Shown: positions 1 to 10,602 of the stretch, piece by piece | Numbering within the stretch: position 1 is the stretch's first letter | How the letters are laid out: each line of letters opens with the position of its first letter | NCBI RefSeq assembly: GCF_035285525.1 | Contig: NZ_JAYKGW010000249.1 | Coordinates: forward strand, 1 to 10,602 | Direction of reading: 5' to 3' | From: Okeania sp. | GTDB lineage: Bacteria > Cyanobacteriota > Cyanobacteriia > Cyanobacteriales > Microcoleaceae | DNA length: 10,602 nucleotides | The notes under the pieces: generated by a model | The model's input: only the letters and a program-made list of their open reading frames with translations | The model's database searches: none | What the model was told of the DNA's origin: nothing | Program-made: the position numbers and the translations under genes

Positions 1-220
1 GTTAAAACCCGCAAGGGCGGGTTGATATAAGTTTGAGAATAGGTATGAAAATTTTAGTTAAAACCCGCAAGGGCGGGTTGATATAAGTTTGAGAATAGGT
101 ATGAAAATTTTAGTTAAAACCCGCCCCTACTATAAATAATTATTCATTGAAGTGAAAGGGCGGGTTGATATAAGTTTGAGAGTAGGTATGAAAATTTTAG
201 TTAAAACCCGCCCCTACTAT
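1..220. repeat. Tandem 56-bp repeat truncated by the window edge. Units lie at 1-56 and 57-112 (identical), and a third unit at 113-198 is split by a 33-bp insertion. A partial fourth unit lies at 199-220.
   Basis: Units 1-56 and 57-112 match exactly. Each unit carries the hairpin AACCCGC-AAGG-GCGGGTT. In the third unit the hairpin loop is replaced by 33 bp (125-157). The string GTTAAAACCCGCCCCTACTAT recurs at 113-133 and 199-219. Confidence 0.9.
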
Positions 221-667
221 TTCCATACTCTTTCTTTCCTTTACTTCTTCATAGAGTAGTTGACTTCGTGAATCTATAATCTAAAATAGAAAATATACAA
301 ATAGCTCGTATCAAGAAACCAACAAATTTGATTGTTAGGTAAAAATACTTGCTTGCTAAATTTTTTTTCAGCTCATCTTTGAGGGAAAGGTTTTAGGGAA
401 TATCAGAAAAAATGGCATTGGTGAATGAAGGGGTAAAATTTAAGTTTTTATTATTAAGAAACTGAGTTTATTGGAAATAGATGTATATTCAGTAATTAAC
501 AATTATATAGTTATGCCTTCTTAAAAGAATGGAATTTACTCAAAGGAAAGTTTTAGATTTATCCTATTTTTAGGACAAGCTTTGAACCTAAATTTTTGAA
601 TTATTTACATTATTAATTCTTGGGTAAAATATCCAATACCAAACCAGCTTATAAACCTTATAAAAAC

Positions 668-768
668 TATAGCTAAAATTATAGCTAAGACCGCCAAAAT
701 TGAAATAATTAATGCCTAAGAATATACCTATTTAAAGTATAAAGACCGCCAAAAAATTAAAGTAATTA
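668..768. repeat. Iteron-like direct repeats: TATAGCTAA x2 (668-676, 680-688) and AAGACCGCCAAAA...TAATTA x2 (687-712, 742-768, 55 bp apart)
   Basis: Direct reading. The GC-containing core GACCGCC is repeated in an otherwise very AT-rich stretch, and flanking similarity continues for about 25 nt. Confidence 0.6.
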
Positions 769-827
769 TTCGGTAATTAGCTATCAGTTACTGGCTATTT
801 TTTATAGGGTATTAGAAAATATTTTTC

Positions 828-848
828 AGGGATAAAAATCCCTTTTTT
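828..848 (+). terminator. Weak intrinsic-terminator-like hairpin AGGGAT-AAAA-ATCCCT followed by a T-run
   Basis: A 6-bp stem (828-833 / 838-843) with a T6 tract ending at 848. No upstream ORF, so it would terminate a non-coding transcript if it is functional. Confidence 0.3.
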
Positions 849-946
849 GTAAAGCATTCCGTTGGCGAAATATTCCTAAAAAAGGAAAAGAAAGGAAAAT
901 AAAAGTCATTTTGCTGAAAGTTGATAGCTAATAGCTAAATGCTTAT
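849..946 (+). mobile_element. MITE-like small repeat element, degenerate copy L (GTAAAGCATTC ... AGCTAATAGCTAAATGCTTAT)
   Basis: Shares both ends with the element at 1761-1929: TTTTTTGTAA(A)GCATTC on the left and AGCTAATAGCT..AATGCTTA on the right. The termini are imperfect inverted repeats. Confidence 0.5.
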
Positions 947-971
947 TATATCTGAGATAACCTAAAATAAA

Positions 972-1751
972 ATGTTCTTTGCGATGCAGGGAAAAATGGA
1001 TTATGAAACTTTAGGAAAAACAGGAGGGATTAGCGCTACTCCTGGAACTCCACAATGGGCACTTGCGATTAAATTAAAATTACAATCTGTTCTGAAAAAA
1101 AGTATAGTTGCTAATGGAGAACAATTAAAAGCATGGCGTGAATTAATGAAACAACCAGCAGCTTATCAACAATTACTTGATGAGCATGGAAAACCATTTA
1201 ATAGTTATGAGGAATTATGTCGTGCTGAACCACCTTATGGATTAGGTTGTGAATCGAAAGAAATTGAAGAATTAATTAGTGGATTAGAATCAACTAAAAC
1301 TGAAAAAGTTGAGATACAAGAAGACCCTGTTAAGGATTTAGGAAATCCATCAAATTATTTTCATAAATTTTCTAAACTGGTGGAGACTTGTTCAGAAAAT
1401 GAAGTTTTAAACGCATCTAAAATAGGGGAAATATTAGATTATGCTCATAGCACTGCTCAACTATGGAGAAAAAGATGGGAACATTTGGGATGGTTGGAAC
1501 AATCAAAAAGTCGCGGAAGAGGCTTTTATCAGATTACTGAATCAGGAAAAGTTGCGGTGAAAAATTGGTTGGAACAACAACCAGAAGGTAAGTTAAGTAA
1601 GGAGTTATGGGTCGTGGTTCCTAAGAATCCTCAAAAGGCAGCAGAAAAGTTAATTAAGTCGTTTAAAGTTGAAGATTTAAGAGAGATTTATAAGTTAATT
1701 GGAGAATCTTTTGGTCAAGAATCAACTGTTTTTTATGAAGATATAGAATGA
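972..1751 (+). CDS. Hypothetical protein, putative DNA-binding (winged-helix-like segment ASKIGEILDYAHSTAQLWRKRWEHLGWLEQSKSRGRGFYQITESGK)
   Basis: A 259-aa ORF in a region with no competing ORFs. The composition is non-repetitive and protein-like. The start is ambiguous: ATG at 972, 984 or 996, and 996 is preceded by AGGGA. No family recognised. Confidence 0.65.
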   Translation: MFFAMQGKMDYETLGKTGGISATPGTPQWALAIKLKLQSVLKKSIVANGEQLKAWRELMKQPAAYQQLLDEHGKPFNSYEELCRAEPPYGLGCESKEIEELISGLESTKTEKVEIQEDPVKDLGNPSNYFHKFSKLVETCSENEVLNASKIGEILDYAHSTAQLWRKRWEHLGWLEQSKSRGRGFYQITESGKVAVKNWLEQQPEGKLSKELWVVVPKNPQKAAEKLIKSFKVEDLREIYKLIGESFGQESTVFYEDIE

Positions 1752-1760
1752 ATATTTTTT

Positions 1761-1929
1761 GTAAGCATTCGGCTATTAGCAGTCAGTTCAAGTGCAATCA
1801 AAACGAATGAAGCAAGGGATCTTTTAACTTCTACTTTTGAACCATATATCTCACTCGATAAAACTATGTATATTTGTCAGAAATTATAGATTTACCTTAA
1901 AAGCTAATAGCTGACTGCTGAATGCTTAC
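1761..1929 (+). mobile_element. MITE-like small repeat element, copy R, with terminal inverted repeats
   Basis: GTAAGCATTC (1761-1770) pairs perfectly with GAATGCTTAC (1920-1929). AGCAGTCAG (1778-1786) pairs with CTGACTGCT (1911-1919). The element begins 10 nt after the stop codon of the 259-aa ORF. Confidence 0.6.
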
Positions 1930-2057
1930 GATAATAATTTTCAGTAAACTAAATTATTTATGTTATGCTTTTTTAATAAAAATTGACCTAATTCAAAAAA
2001 AAATCTTTATAAGAATGATTATTGTCTGATACAATTCATATTGATTGTTAGTAGATC

Positions 2058-2073
2058 GACTATCGAGATAGTC
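2058..2073. promoter_or_regulatory. Perfect palindrome GACTATC-GA-GATAGTC, operator-like, 115 bp upstream of the 196-aa gene
   Basis: 7-bp perfect inverted-repeat arms with a 2-bp spacer. TTGATT lies immediately upstream at 2041-2046. Confidence 0.35.
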
Positions 2074-2188
2074 CATGTTAAATATATAAAGATTTTTAGT
2101 TATGAACATGACTATTTTAGAAGTTTTTACTACAAGGTTTTTGCTAGTGTAAAATATACTGAATTAATAAAATTAAGAAGAGGAACTA

Positions 2189-2779
2189 ATGACAGAAATT
2201 TCAACTGAACAAATGCTTTATTTGCTTTATACATTCGCTTATTCAACAGAGGGAACAGTAACTAAAGGAAATGTCAAGATTAATTTAGCTAAATTATCGA
2301 AAGAATATGGCAAAAATGCAGCACAAATTTGTGAAAGTTTATTTGAAAAGGGATTATTGGAGTCTCCGAAAAGACATAGAATTAGAATGACTGAGATGGG
2401 TATGGAAGTTCTGGTTATTAATCTGCAAAGAACTGAATATGAGTTTACCTCTGTTAAAGGACCTAAAATTTTAAATGCTTTGATGTCTTGTTTGAAGTTA
2501 GTTTCAAAGTATGGGGAAATAGATAAAAAGGTTGTAGATGAAGATATAGATTTTGAGACTTTTGTGGAAAAGTTTGAAAAGCTTTATTTTGAAGAAAGAA
2601 GGGTTCAAGAATTGCGGGGTATAGTTGTTATACGTAGTCAAGAAATCTGTCAAAAATTTATGGAGGAAAATAATATTTCTGAATCTAGTTTAAAGAAATA
2701 TTTTGAGAAATTAAAATCTGACGGTATTGTGTTTGCCGTAGTAGAAGATAATGAAGAACTTATAGAGTGGGTGGATTAA
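2189..2779 (+). CDS. Hypothetical protein with N- and C-terminal winged-helix-like segments; upstream partner of the NTPase gene
   Basis: A 196-aa ORF with the purine-rich SD-like GAAGAGGA at 2177-2184. Its stop (2777-2779) lies 4 nt before the next ATG, suggesting translational coupling. The segments NAAQICESLFEKGLLESPKRHRIRMTEMG and ICQKFMEENNISESSLKKYFEKLKSDGIVF look HTH/wing-like. Confidence 0.75.
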   Translation: MTEISTEQMLYLLYTFAYSTEGTVTKGNVKINLAKLSKEYGKNAAQICESLFEKGLLESPKRHRIRMTEMGMEVLVINLQRTEYEFTSVKGPKILNALMSCLKLVSKYGEIDKKVVDEDIDFETFVEKFEKLYFEERRVQELRGIVVIRSQEICQKFMEENNISESSLKKYFEKLKSDGIVFAVVEDNEELIEWVD

Positions 2780-2783
2780 AATT

Positions 2784-4697
2784 ATGCCAGAAGATTCAGG
2801 AAAGAAAAGAGTAATTAAAGACTTTCTTCAACGGATAAAAGAAGGAGAAGGTTTTATTGAAGATATTTGGATTGAACGTGATATTAGACCTCTTGGAAAA
2901 AATGATATTCTTTCAGATAATAGAAGTTTATGTTCAGCTAACAGTTTGTCTACAAGAGCAGTATCTAATATTACTGAGCTTCTTCAAGATGATATTCGTC
3001 ACACTTTTGAAGAAGGATATTTTACTGCTAGATTTGTTACTGCTGTTTTGGGTAGTGGCAAAACTTCATTACTAACTTATTTAGAACAACTAATTATCAA
3101 TAAACCTGATGATCAAAAAAATTATGTAGTTATTAGGTTTGGATTTGACTATTTATCAGCAACACCAATATCTAGCAATTACAGTTTTGAAGTCAAGTTT
3201 TACTGTTATATTTTAAGCAAAACTTTTTGGGAGTTAACACGAAATCAAGAATCATTAGCAAGAGATGAAGCTATAGAATTTCTCAAAGATTATGATGCAG
3301 ACAAAGCATTATTAGATAAACTCAATAGAAAGAAAATTGCTCGGGATAGTTTAGAAGGAAGTTTTTCGATGTTTTTTGTAAGTCTTGGTGTAGATTTAGG
3401 GAAACTATTTCTTAATCTAATATCCCGTATTAATCAAGTTTCTGCTGGATTTTCTTTTGCATATCTTATAGATGAATTAGATTCGTTAAAAACATCTGGT
3501 AATGAAATAGAAAATACTCAACTAATGTTGAAGGGTTTAATCAAGCGAATACCTGATGAATATAAGTCTAAAATTCCTCTACTAATTTATTTGGTAGGAA
3601 CCAGAAATAGAGTCAGTCAAATTATTGAAGGAAACTCTGTGTTAAAAAGCTTAATTGCGAAAAATTTAATATCTATTAGTATGGGTTTAGAAAAAGAGCA
3701 TCAAATAATTAGACAGAAAATAGATGAAAGGTTTAGAGGAGCATATCAGGGATATAAAGATTTTAATGTTGCTTGGCAAGAGGTTCAAAATATACCATTG
3801 AAATCTCCTATTGAACCTGCAAAAAATTTAAGGGCATTTTGTCAATATTATGGAGGAGAAGTCTTAAGAGTAAACGAAAAGTATTTTGCAGAAATGTCAG
3901 AACAAAAGTTTGAAGGTGATGCTCGTGGATTAGTTGAAGCAAAATGTCGAGAAAAATGGGGAAAATTTTTAAAACAGAAAGCATATACACTATTAACTTT
4001 TGACACTACAAACTCTATTCCAGGTAAAAAAACAGGAAAAAATCACGCTTTAGATTGTTATGTAGAATTACGTCATAATGGTACACAAGTAGCTAGAGGT
4101 TTTGGTGAGGCAAAAAATTATGAATTGTTGAGTTCTCACTTACAAATATTTAGTGATTGGTTAGATGATTTTGAATTTAATCCATATCCTTTGGATAATA
4201 CTCCTCCAGACTTAGCTTTTATGATTGCTCCTTCATGTCCGTCACTTTTAGCAAAAAAGTTAAAGTCGAAAAATATTGAATTTATTGAAGCAGATAAAGA
4301 ACTATCACCTCCAACAAATAAACTAAGTCCACCACCTGAAATGAATATCAACATTTCTGGTCAAGAAAAATCACAACTTATACTACCTACTCCAACTTCA
4401 AAACCTGAAATTAATACCAACATTTCTGGTGAAAAAGAAACACCTCCACCAACTTCAATACTTTCAAAAACTGGAATTAATATTAATACAGCAAATGAAT
4501 CAGAATTAAGAACTGCCTTTAGAGGTTCTGGTGTCAAGAAAACAACTATTCAAAAGCTAATAAAAAATAGAGAAAGTAATCATTATAAAGATTTAGCTCA
4601 TCTTGTATCCGATATGAGATTTACCAACAATGTAAAAGCTAAACTTCAAGAAAAACTTGATAAAAGAGAAATTTGCTTCTCAACCAGAAACTATTAA
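2784..4697 (+). CDS. P-loop NTPase (AAA/ATPase_2-like) fused to a candidate PD-(D/E)xK nuclease-like domain, a Pro-rich repeat linker and a degenerate ComEA-like HhH tail
   Basis: Walker A is AVLGSGKT (aa 87-94, nt 3042-3065). Walker B is FAYLIDELD (aa 225-233, nt 3456-3482). A sensor-1-like strand is PLLIYLVGTRN. The candidate nuclease motif is D424-x17-E442-A-K444 (nt 4053-4115). The tail is ININTANESEL...LQEKL (nt 4476-4680). A GGTGGA SD lies 8 nt upstream of the ATG. Confidence 0.85.
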   Translation: MPEDSGKKRVIKDFLQRIKEGEGFIEDIWIERDIRPLGKNDILSDNRSLCSANSLSTRAVSNITELLQDDIRHTFEEGYFTARFVTAVLGSGKTSLLTYLEQLIINKPDDQKNYVVIRFGFDYLSATPISSNYSFEVKFYCYILSKTFWELTRNQESLARDEAIEFLKDYDADKALLDKLNRKKIARDSLEGSFSMFFVSLGVDLGKLFLNLISRINQVSAGFSFAYLIDELDSLKTSGNEIENTQLMLKGLIKRIPDEYKSKIPLLIYLVGTRNRVSQIIEGNSVLKSLIAKNLISISMGLEKEHQIIRQKIDERFRGAYQGYKDFNVAWQEVQNIPLKSPIEPAKNLRAFCQYYGGEVLRVNEKYFAEMSEQKFEGDARGLVEAKCREKWGKFLKQKAYTLLTFDTTNSIPGKKTGKNHALDCYVELRHNGTQVARGFGEAKNYELLSSHLQIFSDWLDDFEFNPYPLDNTPPDLAFMIAPSCPSLLAKKLKSKNIEFIEADKELSPPTNKLSPPPEMNINISGQEKSQLILPTPTSKPEINTNISGEKETPPPTSILSKTGININTANESELRTAFRGSGVKKTTIQKLIKNRESNHYKDLAHLVSDMRFTNNVKAKLQEKLDKREICFSTRNY

Positions 4698-5095
4698 AAA
4701 ACGACTAACAAAAATTTGGCATTATGAAAAATATAACATGACTTTCTCAGAAGGCGATCGCTACTTCTATTTAAGATAAAAATGAAATTATCTTTAATTA
4801 TCTGACAGAAACTTCCTAACCAGAAACCATCAAAAAAACGACTAACAAAAATTTGGCATTATGAAAAATATAACATGACTTTCTCAGAAGGCGATCACTA
4901 CTTCTATTTAAGATAAAAATGAAATTATCTTTAATTATCTGACAGAAACTTCCTAACCAGAAACTATTAAAAAACGACTAACAAAAATCTGGCATTATGA
5001 AAAATATAACATGACTTTCCGAGAAGGCGATCGCTACTTCTATTTTAAAAATGATGGTTGACAAAATTCAAGTATTTGATAGATATTACTTACTC
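4682..5095 (+). pseudogene. Three tandem diverged pseudo-copies of an internal segment of the downstream prolyl oligopeptidase gene, equivalent to nt ~5477-5650. A is 4682-4817, B is 4818-4954, C is 4955-~5095.
   Basis: Direct alignment by eye. Copies A and C translate as PETIKKRLTKIWHYEKYNMTF(S/R)EGDRYFY, against ETIKKRLTKIWDYEKYSVPFREGDRYFYF in the intact gene. The period is 136-137 bp. Stops and a 1-nt insertion in copy B break the frame. Confidence 0.9.
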
Positions 5096-5138
5096 TTGAA
5101 TAAAAATTAATAGCTGCATTTTACAAGTCAGGTGTCTA

Positions 5139-5300
5139 GAAAAAATATCTTGAGCAGCTAATAAAAAAAGAGAAAAAATTCCGACAAAGATTGAACTTAT
5201 CCAGGTATCTGACCTCAAAAATACCAAAAACAAACCCCAGCAAAAAAAACAAGAAGTAAAACTGCAAGAAAAACTTGATAAAGGCGAAATTTGTTTCTAA
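5139..5300 (+). pseudogene. Decayed relic of a second copy of the NTPase/HhH protein C-terminus, ending ...VSDLKN...KLQEKLDKGEICF*
   Basis: Positions 5262-5300 (CTGCAAGAAAAACTTGATAAAGGCGAAATTTGTTTCTAA) parallel 4646-4680 of the intact ORF. GCTAATAAAAAAAGAGAAA parallels GCTAATAAAAAATAGAGAAA. An in-frame TGA at 5151 and frame breaks lie upstream. Confidence 0.7.
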
Positions 5301-5331
5301 AATTAAATCAACTATTCACAAATAAAAAAAT

Positions 5332-7440
5332 ATGAAATATCCCAAACAACCTCTAACATATCCTGTCACTGAAAAAACAGACACAACAGAAAATTATCAC
5401 GGTATTCAAGTTCCCGATCCTTATAGATGGTTAGAAGAACCAGACTCAGAAAAAACTCAAGATTGGATAAAATCTCAGAACGAAATTACCTTTAATTATC
5501 TGACAGAAATTTCCGAACGAGAAACCATCAAAAAACGACTAACAAAAATCTGGGATTATGAAAAATATAGCGTTCCTTTCCGAGAAGGCGATCGCTACTT
5601 CTATTTTAAAAATGATGGTCTACAAAATCAAAGTATTTTATATACTTTACCTACCCTAGATGCAGAACCAAAAGTTCTCATCGACCCCAACAAATTATCA
5701 GAAGATGGAACAGTCGCTCTTTCTAGAATTTCCATTAGTAATGATGGTAAATTAATCGCCTATGGTATCTCTAAATCTGGTTCAGACTGGCAAGAATGGC
5801 GCATCAAAAATATTGAAACAGGAGAAGATTTGCCAGATATTTTGCAATGGATAAAATTTAATCAACCAACTTGGAAAAATGATAATCAAGGATTGTTTTA
5901 TAGTCGCTACGAACAACCACAAAAAAAAGAATTAGAAGAAACTAATTATTTGCAAAAAGTTTACTATCATACTTTAGGTACTGCTCAAAATGATGATGTA
6001 CTTATCTATGAAAAACCAGACCAAAAAGAATGGTTATTTAATTGTTCTGTGACAGATGATGGCAAATATTTGATTTTGGTAATTAGTCAAAGTACAGAAA
6101 ACAAAAACTTAGTTTTCTACAAAGATTTAACCATACCAAACTCCCCAATAGTAGAACTAATTAGTGAATTTGAAGCACAATATAGTCTGATAGATAATGA
6201 TAATAATATCTTTTGGTTTGTCACAGATTTTAATGCTCCGAAAAAACGAGTTATTGCTATAGATATAAATAACCCCCCATCTCCTTCCTTAGTCACAGGA
6301 AAAAATAAAGATGAATGGCAAGAAATTATTCCCGAAACAACAGATACATTGATAGGAGTAAACATACTTAATAATCAGTTCGTTGCTTTCTATTTAAAAG
6401 ATGCTCATACTCAAATAAAAATCTTAAATCTTGATGGTTCTCCAGTCAGAAATGTAGACTTACCTGGTATTGGTTCCGTAGGTGGTTTTCATGGCAAACG
6501 TTACGACAAAACCACATTTTATAGTTATGTTAGTTTCACAACTCCCTCAACTATTTATCAGTACGATATGGTGACAGGTGAAAGTAAAATTTATCGTCAA
6601 TCAAACGTAGATTTTCATCCCGATGAATTTGAAACCAAGCAAATTTTTTATAATAGTAAAGATGGTACAAAAATTCCCATGTTTATTATTCATAAAAAAG
6701 GTATCAAACTAGATAGCAATAACCCAACTATTCTTTACGGATATGGAGGATTTAATATTTCTATAACTCCCAGCTTTTCTATTAGTAGATTAGTCTGGTT
6801 AGAGATGGGAGGAGTTTATGCCATAGCCAATATTCGTGGAGGTGGAGAATATGGTGAAGAGTGGCATCAAGCAGGAACAAAACAACAGAAACAAAATGTA
6901 TTTGATGACTTTATTAGTGCTGCTGAGTGGTTGATAGAAAATAACTTTACTTCCTCAAAAAGATTAGCTATTAAAGGAGGTAGTAATGGTGGTTTATTAG
7001 TGGGTGCTTGTATTACTCAAAGACCAGAATTATTTGGTGCTGCTTTACCCGCAGTAGGAGTATTAGATATGTTACGTTTCCATAAATTTACTATTGGTTG
7101 GGCCTGGGTTTCTGATTATGGTTCTCCAGATAATCCAGAAGATTTTAAAGCTTTATATGCTTATTCTCCTCTACATAATTTAAAGTCAAAAATATCTTAT
7201 CCTCCAACTTTTGTTACTACTGCTGACCATGATGATCGAGTTGTTCCAGCTCATAGTTTTAAGTTTATTTCTGCTTTACAAGAAGTTCATCTTGGAGATA
7301 ATCCGGTGTTAATTAGAATTGAAACTAAAGCTGGTCATGGAGCAGGAAAACCTACTACGAAAATAATAGAAGAAATTACTGATGAATTTGCTTTTTTGCT
7401 GAGGAATTTTGAAATAGAATTACCTGAAAATTTTCAGTAA
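5332..7440 (+). CDS. Prolyl oligopeptidase (prolyl endopeptidase), peptidase family S9A
   Basis: A 702-aa ORF with the N-terminal YHGIQVPDPYRWLE motif and a beta-propeller-length middle region. The catalytic motifs are GGSNGG (Ser codon 6982-6984), ADHDDRVVP and KAGHGAGKP. Confidence 0.95.
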   Translation: MKYPKQPLTYPVTEKTDTTENYHGIQVPDPYRWLEEPDSEKTQDWIKSQNEITFNYLTEISERETIKKRLTKIWDYEKYSVPFREGDRYFYFKNDGLQNQSILYTLPTLDAEPKVLIDPNKLSEDGTVALSRISISNDGKLIAYGISKSGSDWQEWRIKNIETGEDLPDILQWIKFNQPTWKNDNQGLFYSRYEQPQKKELEETNYLQKVYYHTLGTAQNDDVLIYEKPDQKEWLFNCSVTDDGKYLILVISQSTENKNLVFYKDLTIPNSPIVELISEFEAQYSLIDNDNNIFWFVTDFNAPKKRVIAIDINNPPSPSLVTGKNKDEWQEIIPETTDTLIGVNILNNQFVAFYLKDAHTQIKILNLDGSPVRNVDLPGIGSVGGFHGKRYDKTTFYSYVSFTTPSTIYQYDMVTGESKIYRQSNVDFHPDEFETKQIFYNSKDGTKIPMFIIHKKGIKLDSNNPTILYGYGGFNISITPSFSISRLVWLEMGGVYAIANIRGGGEYGEEWHQAGTKQQKQNVFDDFISAAEWLIENNFTSSKRLAIKGGSNGGLLVGACITQRPELFGAALPAVGVLDMLRFHKFTIGWAWVSDYGSPDNPEDFKALYAYSPLHNLKSKISYPPTFVTTADHDDRVVPAHSFKFISALQEVHLGDNPVLIRIETKAGHGAGKPTTKIIEEITDEFAFLLRNFEIELPENFQ

Positions 7441-8094
7441 GTATTTTCTGTAATGCTACGGAAACAGCTTTTTTATAAATGAAATAAGCATTAGTTTAAT
7501 TTCTACTTTCATAATGATGGAAAAATGCTTCTTTACTTCTCTATTTTTCAGATTAAAATCCCATTTTTTCCATCATTAAATATTTCTATCAATACCTTGC
7601 TTACTAAAAACTATAAACATTTTCATTCTCTGAGCTTCCCAAAAAAAATCGCCCTTGACGGGATTATCGGTTGCATTCTTACTAAAATTGTGATACTATC
7701 TATTTAAATGGGTTTATGTGCCCATATACATGATTTTTTATTCAACTAAAAAATCAGAAATTTTCTCATTATCTCTAGTGAATAATTTTTTTTGCTTAAA
7801 ACTATATATTTTGAGAGATTATTATAATTTCACCAAAAAATTTATCTCAACTAATACATAATTTTGCGGAATAGTAAAGGTAACTTATGTAGAGAAAAAT
7901 CGAAGAAACCTAAAGCTATTTTGATAACTAAGTTTCAGCTTTTGTGTACTCAATCAAAAAAAATTTTAATTTGCTTTAAAAAAAATTAGAGCTATGTAAC
8001 AATCCAAAAATTGGCTGATGTTAACTTTATACATAAAAACTTTACTTTATTATAATCAAAAATTGCTTATTCTCAAGTAAAAACATTAATTCCA

Positions 8095-8124
8095 TTGACT
8101 AGCAAATTCTGTCAAGTATATAAT
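8095..8124 (+). promoter_or_regulatory. Sigma-70-like promoter candidate: TTGACT (8095-8100), 18-nt spacer, TATAAT (8119-8124)
   Basis: Near-consensus hexamers about 70 nt upstream of the ATG at 8192. AT-rich context makes chance matches common. Confidence 0.4.
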
Positions 8125-8191
8125 ATACATCTTTTCTGAAAAAATCAAAATTAAACAAAAAATTCCTTGAAAAAAGGAGGTGAACAACAAT

Positions 8192-8419
8192 ATGACATCA
8201 ACAAATTATGCTCGCTTTATCAATTTTTTACAAAATGAACTATCTATTTCTTCTGCTTCTATAGCAGTTGCTGAACGAGCTAGTGTTACTTCAGAATTAT
8301 CATATCCTCAACCAGACTCTAATGCCTTGTCGATGATTTTGTGGCAATATGGTTTAGTTACTTTAGAACAGTTAGATAAAATATTTGATTGGCTACAAAA
8401 TACTTATGATTTTAATTAA
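8192..8419 (+). CDS. Small conserved cyanobacterial protein (resembles the DUF2949 family as I recall it)
   Basis: The ORF track starts at GTG 8180, but AAGGAGG (8174-8180) sits 11 nt before ATG 8192, so 8192 is the likelier start. The C-terminal LWQYGLVTLEQLDKIFDWL motif is typical of a cyanobacteria-restricted small protein family. Confidence 0.75.
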   Translation: MTSTNYARFINFLQNELSISSASIAVAERASVTSELSYPQPDSNALSMILWQYGLVTLEQLDKIFDWLQNTYDFN

Positions 8420-8423
8420 ATAA

Positions 8424-8535
8424 GGAGTAGGTCATTTCAGTTATCAGTTATCCGTATTTGTAGGTTGGGTTGAGGTAACGAAACCCAACATCAACCCAAA
8501 ACATCATTAGGGAGTAGGAAGTAGGGAGCAGGTGA
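8424..8535. repeat. Cluster of short cyanobacterial intergenic repeats: GGAGTAGG-type units, CAGTTAT x2 (8438-8451), and hairpin GTTGGGTT-N10-AACCCAAC (8464-8489)
   Basis: Direct reading. An alternative pairing is GGGTTGA (8467-8473) with TCAACCC (8491-8497). GGGAGTAGGAAGTAGGGAGCAGG lies at 8510-8532. Confidence 0.6.
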
Positions 8536-8651
8536 AAATAGTTGATAATTTCTTTGGCATAATTAATTTATTATAGCTATTCAGCTCACTTTTTCCTAAG
8601 TCATCTTGTCAAATAGAATTTTAGACAAACAAATTTTTAATAATAAAGGAA

Positions 8652-8786
8652 GCAAGTATTTAGTTTAACTTTTACTTTTACTACATTTTGAACTAGAGAA
8701 TTAAAGTAGAATAACGAGTAGTTCAATTTGCTAACAAAAGCTAATTTAACTAACTCCTAAACACTAAATACTTGCCTTGATTTTTT
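8652..8786. repeat. Long inverted repeat GCAAGTATTTAGT (8652-8664) / ACTAAATACTTGC (8763-8775), with inner pair TTGAACTA / TAGTTCAA and a trailing T6
   Basis: The outer arms are 13 bp and perfect. The inner arms are 8 bp (8689-8696 / 8720-8727). TTTTTT lies at 8781-8786, and an A/T-rich run sits on the other side. This could be an sRNA, a terminator or a MITE-like element. Confidence 0.5.
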
Positions 8787-8944
8787 ATTATCAAAGATTT
8801 CTAATAGTAAAATTTAGTTTATCAATTTAGCTAGAAATAAATACTTTATCTAACTATTAATATCCTCATCTTCCCAATTTACTACTAATAACAATTTCCT
8901 CACTCAAAGAAAGCTAAAAATCATACCTCAAAATTAAAGATTAC

Positions 8945-9033
8945 AGGACTTACGCATTTTTGAGTTTCAACACTAAATAATCTATAACATTGTCATCTTT
9001 GAACTCTATATCTAGTTTGTTTGCGTAAGTCCT
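8945..9033. repeat. 12-bp perfect inverted repeat AGGACTTACGCA / TGCGTAAGTCCT separated by 65 nt
   Basis: Direct reading: arms at 8945-8956 and 9022-9033. Confidence 0.55.
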
Positions 9034-9065
9034 AAATTAATCAAGATAGATAGTATGACCTAGTT

Positions 9066-9096
9066 TAATAAAAATGGCATCACTACTTATCTGCCA
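9066..9096 (-). terminator. Weak intrinsic-terminator candidate downstream of the aminotransferase gene
   Basis: On the minus strand, TGGCA-N12-TGCCA (9075-9096) is followed by TTTTTATT (complement of 9066-9074). The stem is only 5 bp. Confidence 0.25.
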
Positions 9097-9105
9097 ATTT
9101 CATTA

Positions 9106-10260
9106 TCATTCAGTTAAAACTTTGGCAGCAGCAGTTACACCAGCTCCTGAAGCAAAAGAACCATATTCCAACTCTCCTAAAGTAGCTTCCAAAGCAGCGA
9201 TCGCCGTCAGAATATCTCTGTCACAGACAAAACCCAAATGTCCAATACGGAAAATTTTCCCCTTCAGATGGTCTTGTCCACCAGCTAAAGCAATATCAAA
9301 ACGCTTTTTCATAATGGACCGGACTTTTTCTGCTTCTATTTCTGGTGGTGGAGCAACTGCTGTCACAGCAGGACTAGCTACTGCATCTGGACCTAATAAA
9401 GGTAAACCTAAAGCCTTAACTGCTGCACGAGTCGCATTCTTTAAACGTTCGTGTCGAGCAAAAATATTTTCTAATCCTTCAGCTTGCATCATTCTTAGTG
9501 TAGCTTGCAGGCCAAAGAATAAATTTACTGGTGGAGTAAAAGGCGTGGTATTTTTAGCTGCATCTTTACGATATTTACCTAAGTCTAGATAATAGCGTGG
9601 TAACTTAGCTGTTTCATAAGCAGTCCAAGCTTTAGGTCCAACTGCCACAAAAGCCAAACCAGGAGGTATCATGTAACCTTTCTGAGAACCAGAACCAACC
9701 ACATCAAGGCCCAACTCATCTATAGGTACGCTGACTGCCCCAAGACTTGTCACAGCATCTACAATAATTAAAGCTTCACCATGAGCCTTAACATGACTAT
9801 TAATAGTTTCTAAATCATTCAAAACACCTGTAGATGTTTCGCTATGAGTAAGAATAACTGCTTTAATTTGTTTGTCCTTATCCGCTTCTAGGTGTTGACG
9901 AAATTCTTCTGTGTCTAGAGGCTTGCCCCACTCAGCTGTAATTTTCTCAACTTCAACGCCATAAGCTATTGCTACTTCTGCCCAGCGATCGCCAAATTTA
10001 CCATTACATCCACATAGTACGCGATCGCCAGGACTCAGGAAGTTAATTATACCAGCTTCCATAGCTCCAGTACCACTTGCTGCTAGAATCAATACATCAT
10101 TTTTAGTTTGATGGAGCCATTTGAGGTTTTCTGTGACTTCGGCCATAATTTTAGAAAAGTCTCCACTTCTATGGCCTATTGGATGTTTAGCCATTGCTAG
10201 TAATGCTGTTTCTGGTACTGGAGTAGGTCCAGGAATCATTAACATTTGTTTATCATCCAT
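9106..10260 (-). CDS. Class-V PLP-dependent aminotransferase of the serine-pyruvate / alanine-glyoxylate family (the type historically annotated in cyanobacteria as soluble hydrogenase small subunit)
   Basis: A 384-aa ORF with the N-terminal LMIPGPTPVP motif, THSETSTGV, and the PLP-lysine motif SGSQKGYMIPPG. AAGGAA lies 8 nt upstream of the ATG on the minus strand. GC content is higher than its surroundings. Confidence 0.93.
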   Translation of the reverse strand: MDDKQMLMIPGPTPVPETALLAMAKHPIGHRSGDFSKIMAEVTENLKWLHQTKNDVLILAASGTGAMEAGIINFLSPGDRVLCGCNGKFGDRWAEVAIAYGVEVEKITAEWGKPLDTEEFRQHLEADKDKQIKAVILTHSETSTGVLNDLETINSHVKAHGEALIIVDAVTSLGAVSVPIDELGLDVVGSGSQKGYMIPPGLAFVAVGPKAWTAYETAKLPRYYLDLGKYRKDAAKNTTPFTPPVNLFFGLQATLRMMQAEGLENIFARHERLKNATRAAVKALGLPLLGPDAVASPAVTAVAPPPEIEAEKVRSIMKKRFDIALAGGQDHLKGKIFRIGHLGFVCDRDILTAIAALEATLGELEYGSFASGAGVTAAAKVLTE

Positions 10261-10602
10261 TTTTTTCGTTCCTTTATTGTGTTTTATTTGTTTAGTTTCT
10301 ATGTTTAGTTATACATAAGTTTGGTACAGAAAAAAGTTACTTTTTCTTTAAGATTCCTGACTTAAAATTTTGGGAAATTTTTAGTATTTTTTTTAGTTAT
10401 CGAATAGTTATTTAATTCAAAATCATAAATTTATTCAATTTTTTTTGCGTAATTTTTTCTTGACTCTTTTTTGAGAAAACTAATCATAGGGAATAAATAG
10501 TAATTAAAGACATATCAATTTTATTTCAATGGTGTACAAAATTTCATTGTAAATTATTATGCTGCAAAATACTATAGCATTTTCATTAAAAATGCGATAA
10601 CT

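Follow-up and report, generated by a model that had tools for sequence, protein, structure and literature searches.

Immune systems that couple a nucleoside triphosphatase (NTPase) to an effector are an established theme, represented by RdrA of RADAR, the BrxC-type ATPases of BREX and the Avs and bNACHT families of STAND NTPases, and candidate ATPase-nuclease defence modules are common. Among the effector types named for the conflict systems of multicellular bacteria is TIR-GUN4 (PMC8195603). Here we describe two adjacent genes, A and B, which we liken to this theme. They lie in a 10,602-nucleotide stretch of DNA from the cyanobacterium Okeania sp. (RefSeq assembly GCF_035285525.1, contig NZ_JAYKGW010000249.1, positions 1 to 10,602 of the forward strand), called the window below. 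Gene A encodes a predicted tandem winged-helix protein, and gene B a predicted AAA+ ATPase fused to a nuclease-like domain and a helix-hairpin-helix (HhH) tail. We propose, with a probability of roughly 0.58, that A and B make up a two-gene conflict module of the NTPase-effector kind on the chromosome, most likely directed against phage or other foreign DNA. Variants in which TIR or WD40 domains are swapped in, an island of TIR genes beside one variant, recurrent decay, exchange of the ATPase module and the AT-rich state of the cassette, which is poor in the HIP1 repeat (GCGATCGC), suggest such a role.

Domain architecture of A and B

The AlphaFold2 (AF2) model of B, with an overall predicted local distance difference test score (pLDDT) of 81, consists of an ATPase, a lid, an alpha-beta domain, a disordered linker and a four-helix tail, in that order (Table 1). 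The alpha-beta domain (residues 373-505) is a probable DNA-cutting domain. Its predicted elements are a helix at 375-391, strands at 401-406, 420-431 and 434-443, a helix at 446-462, a strand at 477-482, a helix at 487-495 and a strand at 499-502. E377 lies in the first helix, D424 at the kink of strand 420-431, and E442-x-K444 at the end of strand 434-443. In an alignment of 60 B sequences, 44-83% identical to the window protein, these four residues are invariant, as are R381, G441, A443, N445 and Y446. Both the order of the modelled elements and the placement of E...D...ExK fit those of a PD-(D/E)xK core. Foldseek searches, for which whole chains were the queries, returned two weak nuclease-type matches of fitting size from BFVD (ranks 33-34, E ~0.05, probability 0.94), one of which is annotated 'restriction endonuclease' and comes from Synechococcus phage S-CAM7. 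The excised domain of seven members matched nothing relevant in Pfam at E up to 10, and hhalign did not align the motifs of a domain profile with those of E. coli Mrr, McrC or an alignment of eight Uma2 nucleases from the fetched loci. Among 1.84 billion representative proteins the domain-only profile recovered 39, nearly all of them either built like B or fragments of it. Since the profile returns only the A-B family itself, the nuclease-like domain appears to be private to that family, and we infer its fold from the order of secondary structure in the model, the motif and the correlation with effector swapping described below.

The strongest support for an effector, and specifically a nuclease, comes from the variants. 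The 39 proteins include a clade of 721-733 residues with an additional C-terminal TIR domain: TIR_2 exceeds the Pfam cut-off in P0197, P0199, P0201 and P0208 (E=1e-16 to 1e-22), and P0209 is a TIR protein according to NCBI. The ExK motif is lost in all seven sequences of this clade, being replaced by G/S-x-R/Q, and in six of the seven D424 has become N, S or G. All members without TIR keep D, E and K, with the partial exception of the remote protein P0216, which retains D and E and has Thr for Lys. Loss of the triad exactly where a TIR domain is gained is the behaviour expected of an effector domain. In a further variant (P0185) the triad is kept and WD40 repeats stand in place of the HhH tail. 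The neighbours of one TIR variant (L078-L080) are a ThsB-like TIR gene, a TIR-SLOG gene, two TIR-GUN4 genes and an integrase.

The remote clade of P0216 and P0220 (592-595 aa), in which D and E are retained and Thr stands for Lys, has an upstream partner of another kind. At its locus L086 (5345-7788) a 218-aa protein overlaps the start of B and shows no detectable homology to A, and the locus adjoins a bpMoxR-vWA pair. With 49% GC and no HIP1, this contig may not be cyanobacterial.

Within the ATPase of B, G90, G92, K93, E231 and D233 are invariant in the 60-sequence alignment and D230 is at least 90% conserved. As whole chains were queried, the list of Protein Data Bank (PDB) matches for B is dominated by this domain: RdrA (8hr8) is best at E=2e-6, followed by ORC/Cdc6 proteins and BrxC (E ~8e-4), with a probability of 1.00. 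By its predicted fold, the ATPase of B is an AAA+ domain of the ORC/Cdc6-STAND clade. The only ATPase family in Pfam that the window protein matches is cobW (E=0.055). Among the 60 homologs, sub-threshold Pfam signals comprise NACHT (21), AAA_22 (11), BrxC_BrxD (7) and also AAA_16; a single deep-clade member (P0198) passes the cut-off of BrxC_BrxD, with 23.1 vs 22.2 bits. Searches of PDB sequences with single sequences and the full-length profile gave noise only. The N-terminal region ahead of the ATPase is part of the stretch in which alleles diverge most.

The linker is the sole unconserved, indel-rich part of B in the alignment, and in the window contains a 50-nt direct repeat (4325-4374 and 4394-4443; repeat family D5). 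The tail that follows is modelled as four helices (572-578, 586-596, 604-611 and 615-626) with pLDDT >90. Its first hairpin, FRGSGV, is recognisable; the second is degenerate and has no Gly-h-Gly motif. For the window protein, all profile matches of the tail are sub-threshold: HHH_3 (E=0.003, 18 bits vs a cut-off of 27), TIGR00426 (16.4 vs 53.1) and T2SSK. Across the 60 members, T2SSK is found in 26 (best 6e-6) and HHH_3 in 11 (best 3e-5). The whole-chain Foldseek search shows no match specific to the tail. The tail resembles the (HhH)2 modules of ComEA (TIGR00426) and GspK in profile and in its four confident helices, and differs from them in scoring below the curated thresholds, in being fused to a protein without a signal peptide evident by eye and in having no competence context. 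The C-terminal extension STRNY is specific to the window.

Protein A is predicted by AF2 to be a tandem winged-helix protein: the model (pLDDT 87.7) has two helix-helix-helix-strand-strand units with a low-confidence loop between them. A has no match above threshold in Pfam, NCBIfam or PADLOC; winged-helix families appear below threshold. Its Foldseek neighbours are all weak (E at least 7e-3) and comprise the winged helices of MukE, ScpB, DtxR/IdeR and MarR/SlyA. It has 60 relatives, cyanobacterial wherever an organism is named.

Most of this architecture had been anticipated by a sequence-only reading made by a model from the letters and a list of open reading frames (ORFs). The ORF coordinates agree with the two genes 4 nt apart that it described; its Walker A (AVLGSGKT) and Walker B (YLIDELD) motifs lie where it placed them and, invariant or near-invariant in the 60 homologs, did not arise by chance; the Pro-rich linker is present; the double winged helix-turn-helix (wHTH) partner is borne out by the model of A; and the ComEA-type HhH tail with a degenerate hairpin (ININTA..., residues 565-633) is supported by the four-helix model and the sub-threshold HHH_3, T2SSK and TIGR00426 signals. 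Its D-x(n)-E-x-K nuclease survives in part: the residues are there and invariant and the order of elements fits, while the two weak BFVD matches are the nearest to a nuclease that residues 373-505 come. The suggested analogy to archaeal ATPase_2 plus DUF234 proteins finds no support in Pfam; the nearest structures, RdrA, ORC/Cdc6 and BrxC, belong to the same broad AAA+ clade.

Distribution and evolution of the gene pair

More than 225 full-length relatives of B were found at ~45% identity; all of those with an organism name are cyanobacterial, and none is functionally named. A pattern-based scan of 185,579 species genomes, which can miss divergent copies, gave 72 loci, all cyanobacterial save one 2.6-kb contig labelled Eubacteriales. 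This short contig is mislabelled; leaving aside it and one unplaced metagenome contig, A-B was seen in cyanobacteria alone. Carriers include Okeania, Trichodesmium IMS101, Dapis, Microcoleus, Planktothrix, many Nostoc, Stigonema, Chamaesiphon and a metagenome-assembled genome (MAG) of Acaryochloris, and no classic model strain is named in the 72 match titles. The family occurs mostly in filamentous or colonial taxa, with Chamaesiphon and the Acaryochloris MAG as unicellular carriers. Nostoc mirabile has two copies of A-B, which are distant paralogs. An A homolog lies directly 5' of B in all loci with upstream sequence, the TIR and WD40 variants included, so that the co-occurrence of the two genes proposed as a check by the sequence-only reading is found wherever that sequence is retained. 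The spacing between the genes is 3-4 nt across loci. No gene family other than A and B recurs across the loci of different lineages. A transposon consisting of a TnsC-like ATPase and a TnsA-like nuclease was considered and rejected: there is no transposase, A is the only recurrent neighbour, and the locus keeps its synteny.

Some 15 of the 72 loci are damaged by deletions or frameshifts that do not lie at contig ends. Deletions that run from within A into B arose independently in L043, L044, L064, L066, L067 and L075; those of L048, L068 and L074 are confined to B. In the decayed loci, the 5' part alone survives of A. This recurrence could be plain decay or selection that disables the switch. 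In a Dapis genome (M126), a 374-aa remnant of B without Walker A is left between two intact flanking genes, the upstream gene U and a prolyl oligopeptidase gene (POP), and clean deletions are found in Nostoc as well. As to what remains, the recurrent deletions cost A its 3' part and B its N-terminal and ATPase part, and leave the nuclease and HhH part; in L066 the remnants of A and B stand in one frame.

The tree of B is incongruent with taxonomy, Nostoc and Microcoleus each falling into several clades. At the Microcoleaceae loci U and POP are 81-97% identical, and B is 51-95% identical and forms two allele groups. Between two Okeania loci, L008 (strain SIO1I7) and L009 (strain SIO2C9), U is 95% identical, and B is 47-57% identical in the N-terminal and ATPase half and 85-89% identical in the nuclease and HhH half. 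For this pair, synonymous divergence (dS) reaches 1.23 in the ATPase segment, against 0.13 in U and 0.07-0.19 in the nuclease and HhH segments. L007 and L008 display the opposite pattern: dS is 0.03-0.09 in the ATPase module vs 0.31-0.38 in the flanks, i.e. the module is much younger than its surroundings. To judge from these mosaics, recombination has exchanged the ATPase module without its flanks. Positive selection as the cause of allele divergence was rejected in favour of recombination, because dS, and not the nonsynonymous divergence (dN) alone, is about 10-fold up in the ATPase segment. The ratio of the two (omega) indicates purifying selection on both genes: it is 0.08-0.28 for A, and 0.30-0.50 for intact B vs 0.12-0.25 for the flanks, the constraint on B being looser than that on A or the flanks.

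The cassette also stands apart in composition. In 54 loci with intact A-B, drawn from the window and L001-L077, HIP1 occurs once in 128.8 kb of cassette vs 424 times in 519 kb of flanks (p ~1e-39); it is 90-fold over-represented in the flanks and at chance level inside A-B. The cassette lies ~7 GC points below the flanks in these loci, and flank windows matched for GC still contain ~56-fold more HIP1 than the cassette. HIP1 is a methylated motif in cyanobacteria. The HIP1-free state could reflect selection against the repeat inside the cassette, or else constant replacement by horizontal transfer. In the window, no site is found in 1-4750 and six lie beyond, so the HIP1-free segment noted from the sequence alone is seen here and generalises to the 54 loci.

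Across lineages, the flanks of A-B are mostly housekeeping genes. In Planktothrix, Gloeotrichia and Okeania they are not enriched in defence or mobile genes; beyond the clade of the window the flanking housekeeping genes are different ones, CobN, PriA and chorismate synthase among them. The neighbours often include toxin-antitoxin pairs (HepT/Pol-beta, DUF433/DUF5615 and Xre-RES), and a gene with a type I restriction HsdR N-terminal domain is also found in the surroundings of A-B. At L014 (4510-5095) and eight further loci of the Nostoc lineage, a PhdYeFM-like antitoxin gene and a gene for a 111-aa partner are found immediately 5' of A.

The other genes of the window, besides A, B and U, encode a prolyl oligopeptidase, a DUF2949 protein and a class-V aminotransferase (Pfam). 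U (972-1751, + strand, 259 aa) shows weak signs of HTH_23 and IS630-N-like similarity. Over Okeania, Trichodesmium and Dapis, where it always stands 5' of A-B, it is 81-97% identical; it is not present in A-B loci of other lineages, and is itself HIP1-free. U was rejected as a third component, as it co-occurs with the pair only within Microcoleaceae synteny and evolves like the flank. At the start of the window, at the contig end, three copies of a 65-nt repeat (13-220; 88-100% identical) with hairpin-forming arms AAGGGCGGGTT...AACCCGCCC resemble a small palindromic element of the miniature inverted-repeat transposable element (MITE) or repetitive extragenic palindrome (REP) type. A 172-aa ORF (9074-9592, + strand) antisense to the class-V aminotransferase gene (9106-10260, - strand) is almost certainly spurious; the aminotransferase region is the only part of the window with ~40% GC. 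Rfam and tRNA scans detected no RNA features in the window.

The stop codon of A (TAA) ends at 2779 and the start codon of B (ATG) begins at 2784. A GGTGGA motif inside the 3' end of A, just 5' of the B start, makes translational coupling possible, and the translation of B is apparently coupled to that of A. Ahead of A, the (A/C)AGAGG core of the Shine-Dalgarno sequence is kept in all 11 aligned Microcoleaceae upstream regions. Further upstream, ~75-135 nt ahead of the A start, a palindrome and a third half-site (2055-2114) may form an operator for A. One subset of Microcoleaceae alleles keeps the GATAGTC...GACTAT arrangement; in L008 and L009 the region upstream of A is unrelated to that of the palindrome-bearing alleles. 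L010 and L046 carry an insertion of ~100 nt (GTGAAGTAC.GCTATGACAGG...) between the conserved promoter-like region and the Shine-Dalgarno sequence of A, which is missing from other alleles and is maybe a small mobile element.

The spacer between B and POP is repeat-scarred, as the sequence-only reading had it. Its first part (4696-5105) consists of three decayed copies of POP codons 49-110 in the form of 137-nt tandem repeats, two of which are 98% identical; there is a HIP1 site in each repeat region. The second part is a decayed second 3' end of B (5097-5301), reading ...VKLQEKLDKGEICF and a stop. This copy ends with the family-consensus C-terminus ...KLQEKLDKGEICF and a stop (GEICF), and the live B continues to ...CFSTRNY. 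The scar records a duplication of ~600 nt where the 3' end of B meets the 5' end of POP.

Table 1. Coordinates of the A-B gene pair, its signals and its protein domains in the window
Feature	Residues	Nucleotides	Strand	Basis or remark
Palindrome ATCGACTATC/GATAGTCCAT 5' of A		2055-2076	.	inverted repeat, 10-nt arms, 90% complementary
Third half-site CATGACTAT 5' of A		2106-2114	.	
Shine-Dalgarno sequence AAGAGGA of gene A		2178-2184	+	
Gene A	196 aa	2189-2779	+	ORF list
A, wHTH-1	1-81	2189-2431	+	AF2 model
A, wHTH-2	122-196	2552-2776	+	AF2 model
Gene B	637 aa	2784-4697	+	ORF list
B, N-terminal region	1-79	2784-3020	+	near-invariant start MPEDxGKK
B, AAA+ base and lid	80-372	3021-3899	+	
B, Walker A AVLGSGKT	87-94 (K93)	3042-3065	+	
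B, Walker B AYLIDELD	227-233 (YLIDELD; D230/E231)	3459-3482	+	
B, restriction-endonuclease-like (PD-(D/E)xK-like) domain	373-505	3900-4298	+	AF2 and motif
B, candidate catalytic residues	D424; E442; K444	4053-4055; 4107-4109; 4113-4115	+	HALDCYVEL...GFGEAKNYE
B, disordered Pro/Ser/Thr-rich linker	506-562	4299-4469	+	pLDDT <50
B, ComEA/GspK-like (HhH)2 tail	563-633	4470-4697 (with extension STRNY and stop)	+	profiles, AF2
Duplication scar, B-POP spacer		4696-5331	.	repeat analysis

Possible functions

In the conflict module that we propose, A and B would form a complex in which A acts as an adaptor recognising DNA or a ligand, as the repressor of the operon, or as both. A trigger sensed through A, through the polymorphic N-terminal and ATPase half of B, or through both would change the nucleotide or oligomeric state of B. 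The switched B would license its nuclease domain to cut DNA held non-specifically by the HhH tail, and the DNA cut would be that of the invader or, in abortive infection, that of the cell. In the TIR clade, where the nuclease residues appear dead, TIR, presumably an NADase, would be the effector, and cleavage of NAD+ would replace that of DNA. Being polymorphic and recombining, the N-terminal and ATPase half is presumably where the specificity resides or what counter-defence targets.

Several observations weigh against this proposal. The ATPase matches have low template modelling (TM) scores (0.2-0.29, normalised to the query), and residues 373-505 have no significant sequence or structure match to a known nuclease in Pfam, PDB sequence and profile, hhalign or Foldseek searches. 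As PADLOC has no model for A-B, the case for defence rests on analogy and comparative genomics. Copies of A-B were not found on PLSDB plasmids, INPHARED phages or IMG/VR contigs. In Okeania, Trichodesmium and Dapis the pair stands in a syntenic order, U-A-B-POP, with housekeeping flanks and no defence-gene neighbours, and the phyletic count carries the limit of its pattern-based scan. The defence-island context claimed by the sequence-only reading is accordingly wrong for the window; it holds for the TIR variant (L078-L080). Conserved synteny, which that reading named as counting against it, is seen in part: the gene order is kept in the three genera, and the family as a whole is patchy, decayed and recombining. 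Its larger claim, a defence-like module, loses the island context of the window and is strengthened by the TIR and WD40 variants, the TIR island, decay, mosaicism and lack of HIP1.

One alternative is a mechanistic sub-variant of the proposed module, since it assumes direct restriction instead of abortive infection: A would read modified or non-self DNA and recruit B, which would cleave the invader in the manner of the NTP-dependent, type IV-like enzymes McrBC and Mrr. We consider it unlikely. Its ingredients are present, in that McrBC and Mrr systems also offer an AAA+ NTPase, a PD-(D/E)xK nuclease and a winged-helix DNA reader, and B adds a non-specific HhH DNA clamp to its AAA+ NTPase and PD-(D/E)xK-like domain. 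In 38 of 44 homologs of A, scanned singly against Pfam, Mrr_N appears below threshold on residues 42-75, within the first winged helix, and residues 40-80 align weakly by hhalign with the N-terminal winged helix of E. coli Mrr (E=0.004), although the probability of that alignment is 8%. The scarcity of HIP1 in the cassette would, speculatively, fit avoidance of a modified target, given the methylation of HIP1. However, the domain of B has no detectable similarity to McrC or Mrr, its ATPase is ORC/STAND-like and so of another AAA+ clade than McrB, the reader would be on a separate polypeptide, and a swap of nuclease for TIR is less usual for restriction enzymes than for suicide or signalling effectors.

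We regard as similarly unlikely that the alpha-beta domain is not a nuclease at all, and that B is a DNA-binding ATPase acting as regulator or remodeller, with A as an ordinary transcription factor and the E/D/E/K residues serving in ligand or metal binding or in oligomerisation. The failure of profile and fold searches to return a significant nuclease would be expected in that case, and the retention of the domain without its triad in the TIR clade points to a non-catalytic, structural role as well. Against it stand the arrangement of E (helix), D (start of strand 2) and ExK (strand 3) on a helix, three strands, a helix and a strand, which is the PD-(D/E)xK signature, the loss of the triad exactly where TIR is gained, and the weak Foldseek match to the phage restriction endonuclease.

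Quite improbable, in our view, is a housekeeping DNA-transaction factor of mostly filamentous cyanobacteria, an accessory complex for repair, recombination, chromosome organisation or DNA uptake assembled from an ORC-like ATPase, a structure-specific nuclease, a ComEA-like tail and a KITE-like tandem-wHTH subunit. The U-A-B-POP synteny, the housekeeping flanks elsewhere, the purifying selection on A and B and the missing plasmid and phage copies all suit such a factor, as does the ComEA-like tail. So does the presence of MukE (3euh_D, 3rpu) and ScpB (6juv) among the best Foldseek matches of A, which like these KITE proteins has tandem winged helices and ~190 aa. But these matches have E at least 7e-3 and TM ~0.3, MarR- and DtxR-type regulators score alike, and no SMC or kleisin gene is linked to A-B at any locus. 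The SMC or Wadjet-like system that the MukE match might suggest was rejected on the same grounds, B being without a coiled coil. A housekeeping role is also hard to square with the patchy distribution and paralogs, the decay of about one fifth of the loci, with clean deletions in Dapis and Nostoc, the TIR and WD40 variants with their triad loss and, at one variant, a TIR island, recombinational exchange of alleles, an omega about twice that of the flanks, and the near-total absence of HIP1 next to 90-fold enriched flanks.

A bolder reading, which we hold to be a long shot, takes A-B for a cyanobacterial NLR-like polymorphic immune or allorecognition locus that works by cassette exchange: homologous recombination would swap the N-terminal and ATPase sensor half among lineages at a fixed chromosomal site, the effector half, private nuclease domain or TIR, would stay constant, and HIP1 would be excluded because it, or its methylated form, belongs to what the system recognises or has to avoid. 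Least credible of all is a kin-recognition, allorecognition or addiction module of multicellular cyanobacteria, an NLR-like locus kept polymorphic by balancing selection and recombination that kills cells meeting incompatible partners or losing the cassette: a syntenic locus with two allele classes that have diverged deeply in near-identical backgrounds (95% identity in U and 47% in the ATPase segment of B between L008 and L009), the dS mosaic of module exchange, the mostly filamentous or colonial carriers, and a sub-threshold NACHT-like signal with TIR and WD40 variants that recall the NLRs of fungal heterokaryon incompatibility would suit it, but there is no secreted or surface component and no sign of cytoplasm mixing between genotypes, unicellular carriers exist, and diversifying selection driven by phage predicts the identical pattern of polymorphism.

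If the NLR-like cassette-exchange reading were true, A-B would constitute a new immune family, its domain would be a new subfamily of nuclease fold, and the pair would provide the first functional link of the HIP1 repeat to a self/non-self system. If the pair is immune, as in the NTPase-effector module that we favour, it would be a lineage-specific addition to what little has been charted of the defence systems of bloom-forming and nitrogen-fixing cyanobacteria, for example Trichodesmium, Okeania, Planktothrix and Nostoc, whose ecology is shaped by phage pressure. A defence-like system that lies outside a defence island would be missed by island-based discovery pipelines. The loss of the triad at the gain of TIR is a natural experiment that names the residues to mutate, the syntenic locus with a swapped sensor and ATPase half appears to be a clear case of modular recombination, and the single HIP1 site in 129 kb of cassette may bear on the spread or role of that repeat.

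Comparison with known systems

Searches of PADLOC-DB v2.0.0 with A, B and U gave no family of named anti-phage systems at E up to 1, Pfam and NCBIfam gave sub-threshold matches only, and full-text searches of the literature found the general conflict-system theme and not the A-B family. The statement of the sequence-only reading that the pair is no named system is upheld by these results.

The closest structural relative is RADAR. RdrA (8hr8, 8hrb and 8fnw) is the best structural match of the ~370 N-terminal residues of B (E=2e-6 to 1e-4, probability 1.00), and is likewise an ORC/STAND-like AAA+ switch of a two-gene anti-phage system. However, RdrA has ~850 aa (830-852 in the matched chains), forms heptameric rings and lacks nuclease and HhH domains. 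Its partner is the deaminase RdrB, whereas that of B is the 196-aa tandem-wHTH protein A, and no deaminase is found among the annotated neighbours of A-B. RdrA and B show no similarity at the sequence level, and their TM is ~0.25.

The ATPase fold of B also matches BrxC/PglY of BREX (PF10923; 9zll and 9zdx; Foldseek E ~8e-4). BrxC, however, has no nuclease or HhH domains, and the A-B loci contain no gene for the methyltransferase PglX or for PglZ, BrxA, BrxB or BrxL. With ORC/Cdc6 proteins (human ORC4/5 and A. pernix ORC2, 1w5t) B shares the AAA+ base-plus-lid fold and, as with archaeal ATPase_2/DUF234 proteins, an additional C-terminal domain beyond the lid. In ORC this domain is a winged helix, whereas B has the family-private alpha-beta domain instead. 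Neither ATPase_2 (PF01637) nor DUF234 (PF03008) matches the window B at E up to 1 or stands among the 25 families listed for the 60 homologs at E up to 0.1.

The STAND NTPases (Avs/AVAST and bNACHT) and the NTPase-effector conflict systems (PMC8195603) resemble A-B in having an NTPase switch and a swappable effector, restriction-endonuclease-like or TIR, with WD40 repeats in one variant, and the TIR-GUN4 genes beside one A-B variant are a further likeness to the latter. B differs from Avs and bNACHT proteins in being small (570-640 aa) and mostly without a repeat sensor, in its C-terminal effector and in its obligatory tandem-wHTH partner, and A-B belongs to no such family in Pfam or PADLOC. 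To our knowledge, an HhH tail is not a feature of families of the Avs and bNACHT type.

By profile thresholds and by the absence of the partners RdrB, PglX and PglZ, A-B is a member of none of RADAR, BREX and Avs/bNACHT. What A-B shares with them is the NTPase-effector theme, by analogy. What is new is the architecture, in which an ORC-like ATPase is joined to a private nuclease-like domain and, through a tether, to an HhH tail, and which comes with a tandem-wHTH partner that is obligatory; the nuclease-like domain itself, which matches no model in Pfam, NCBIfam or PADLOC; and the behaviour of the pair as a HIP1-free, recombining cassette at syntenic housekeeping sites.

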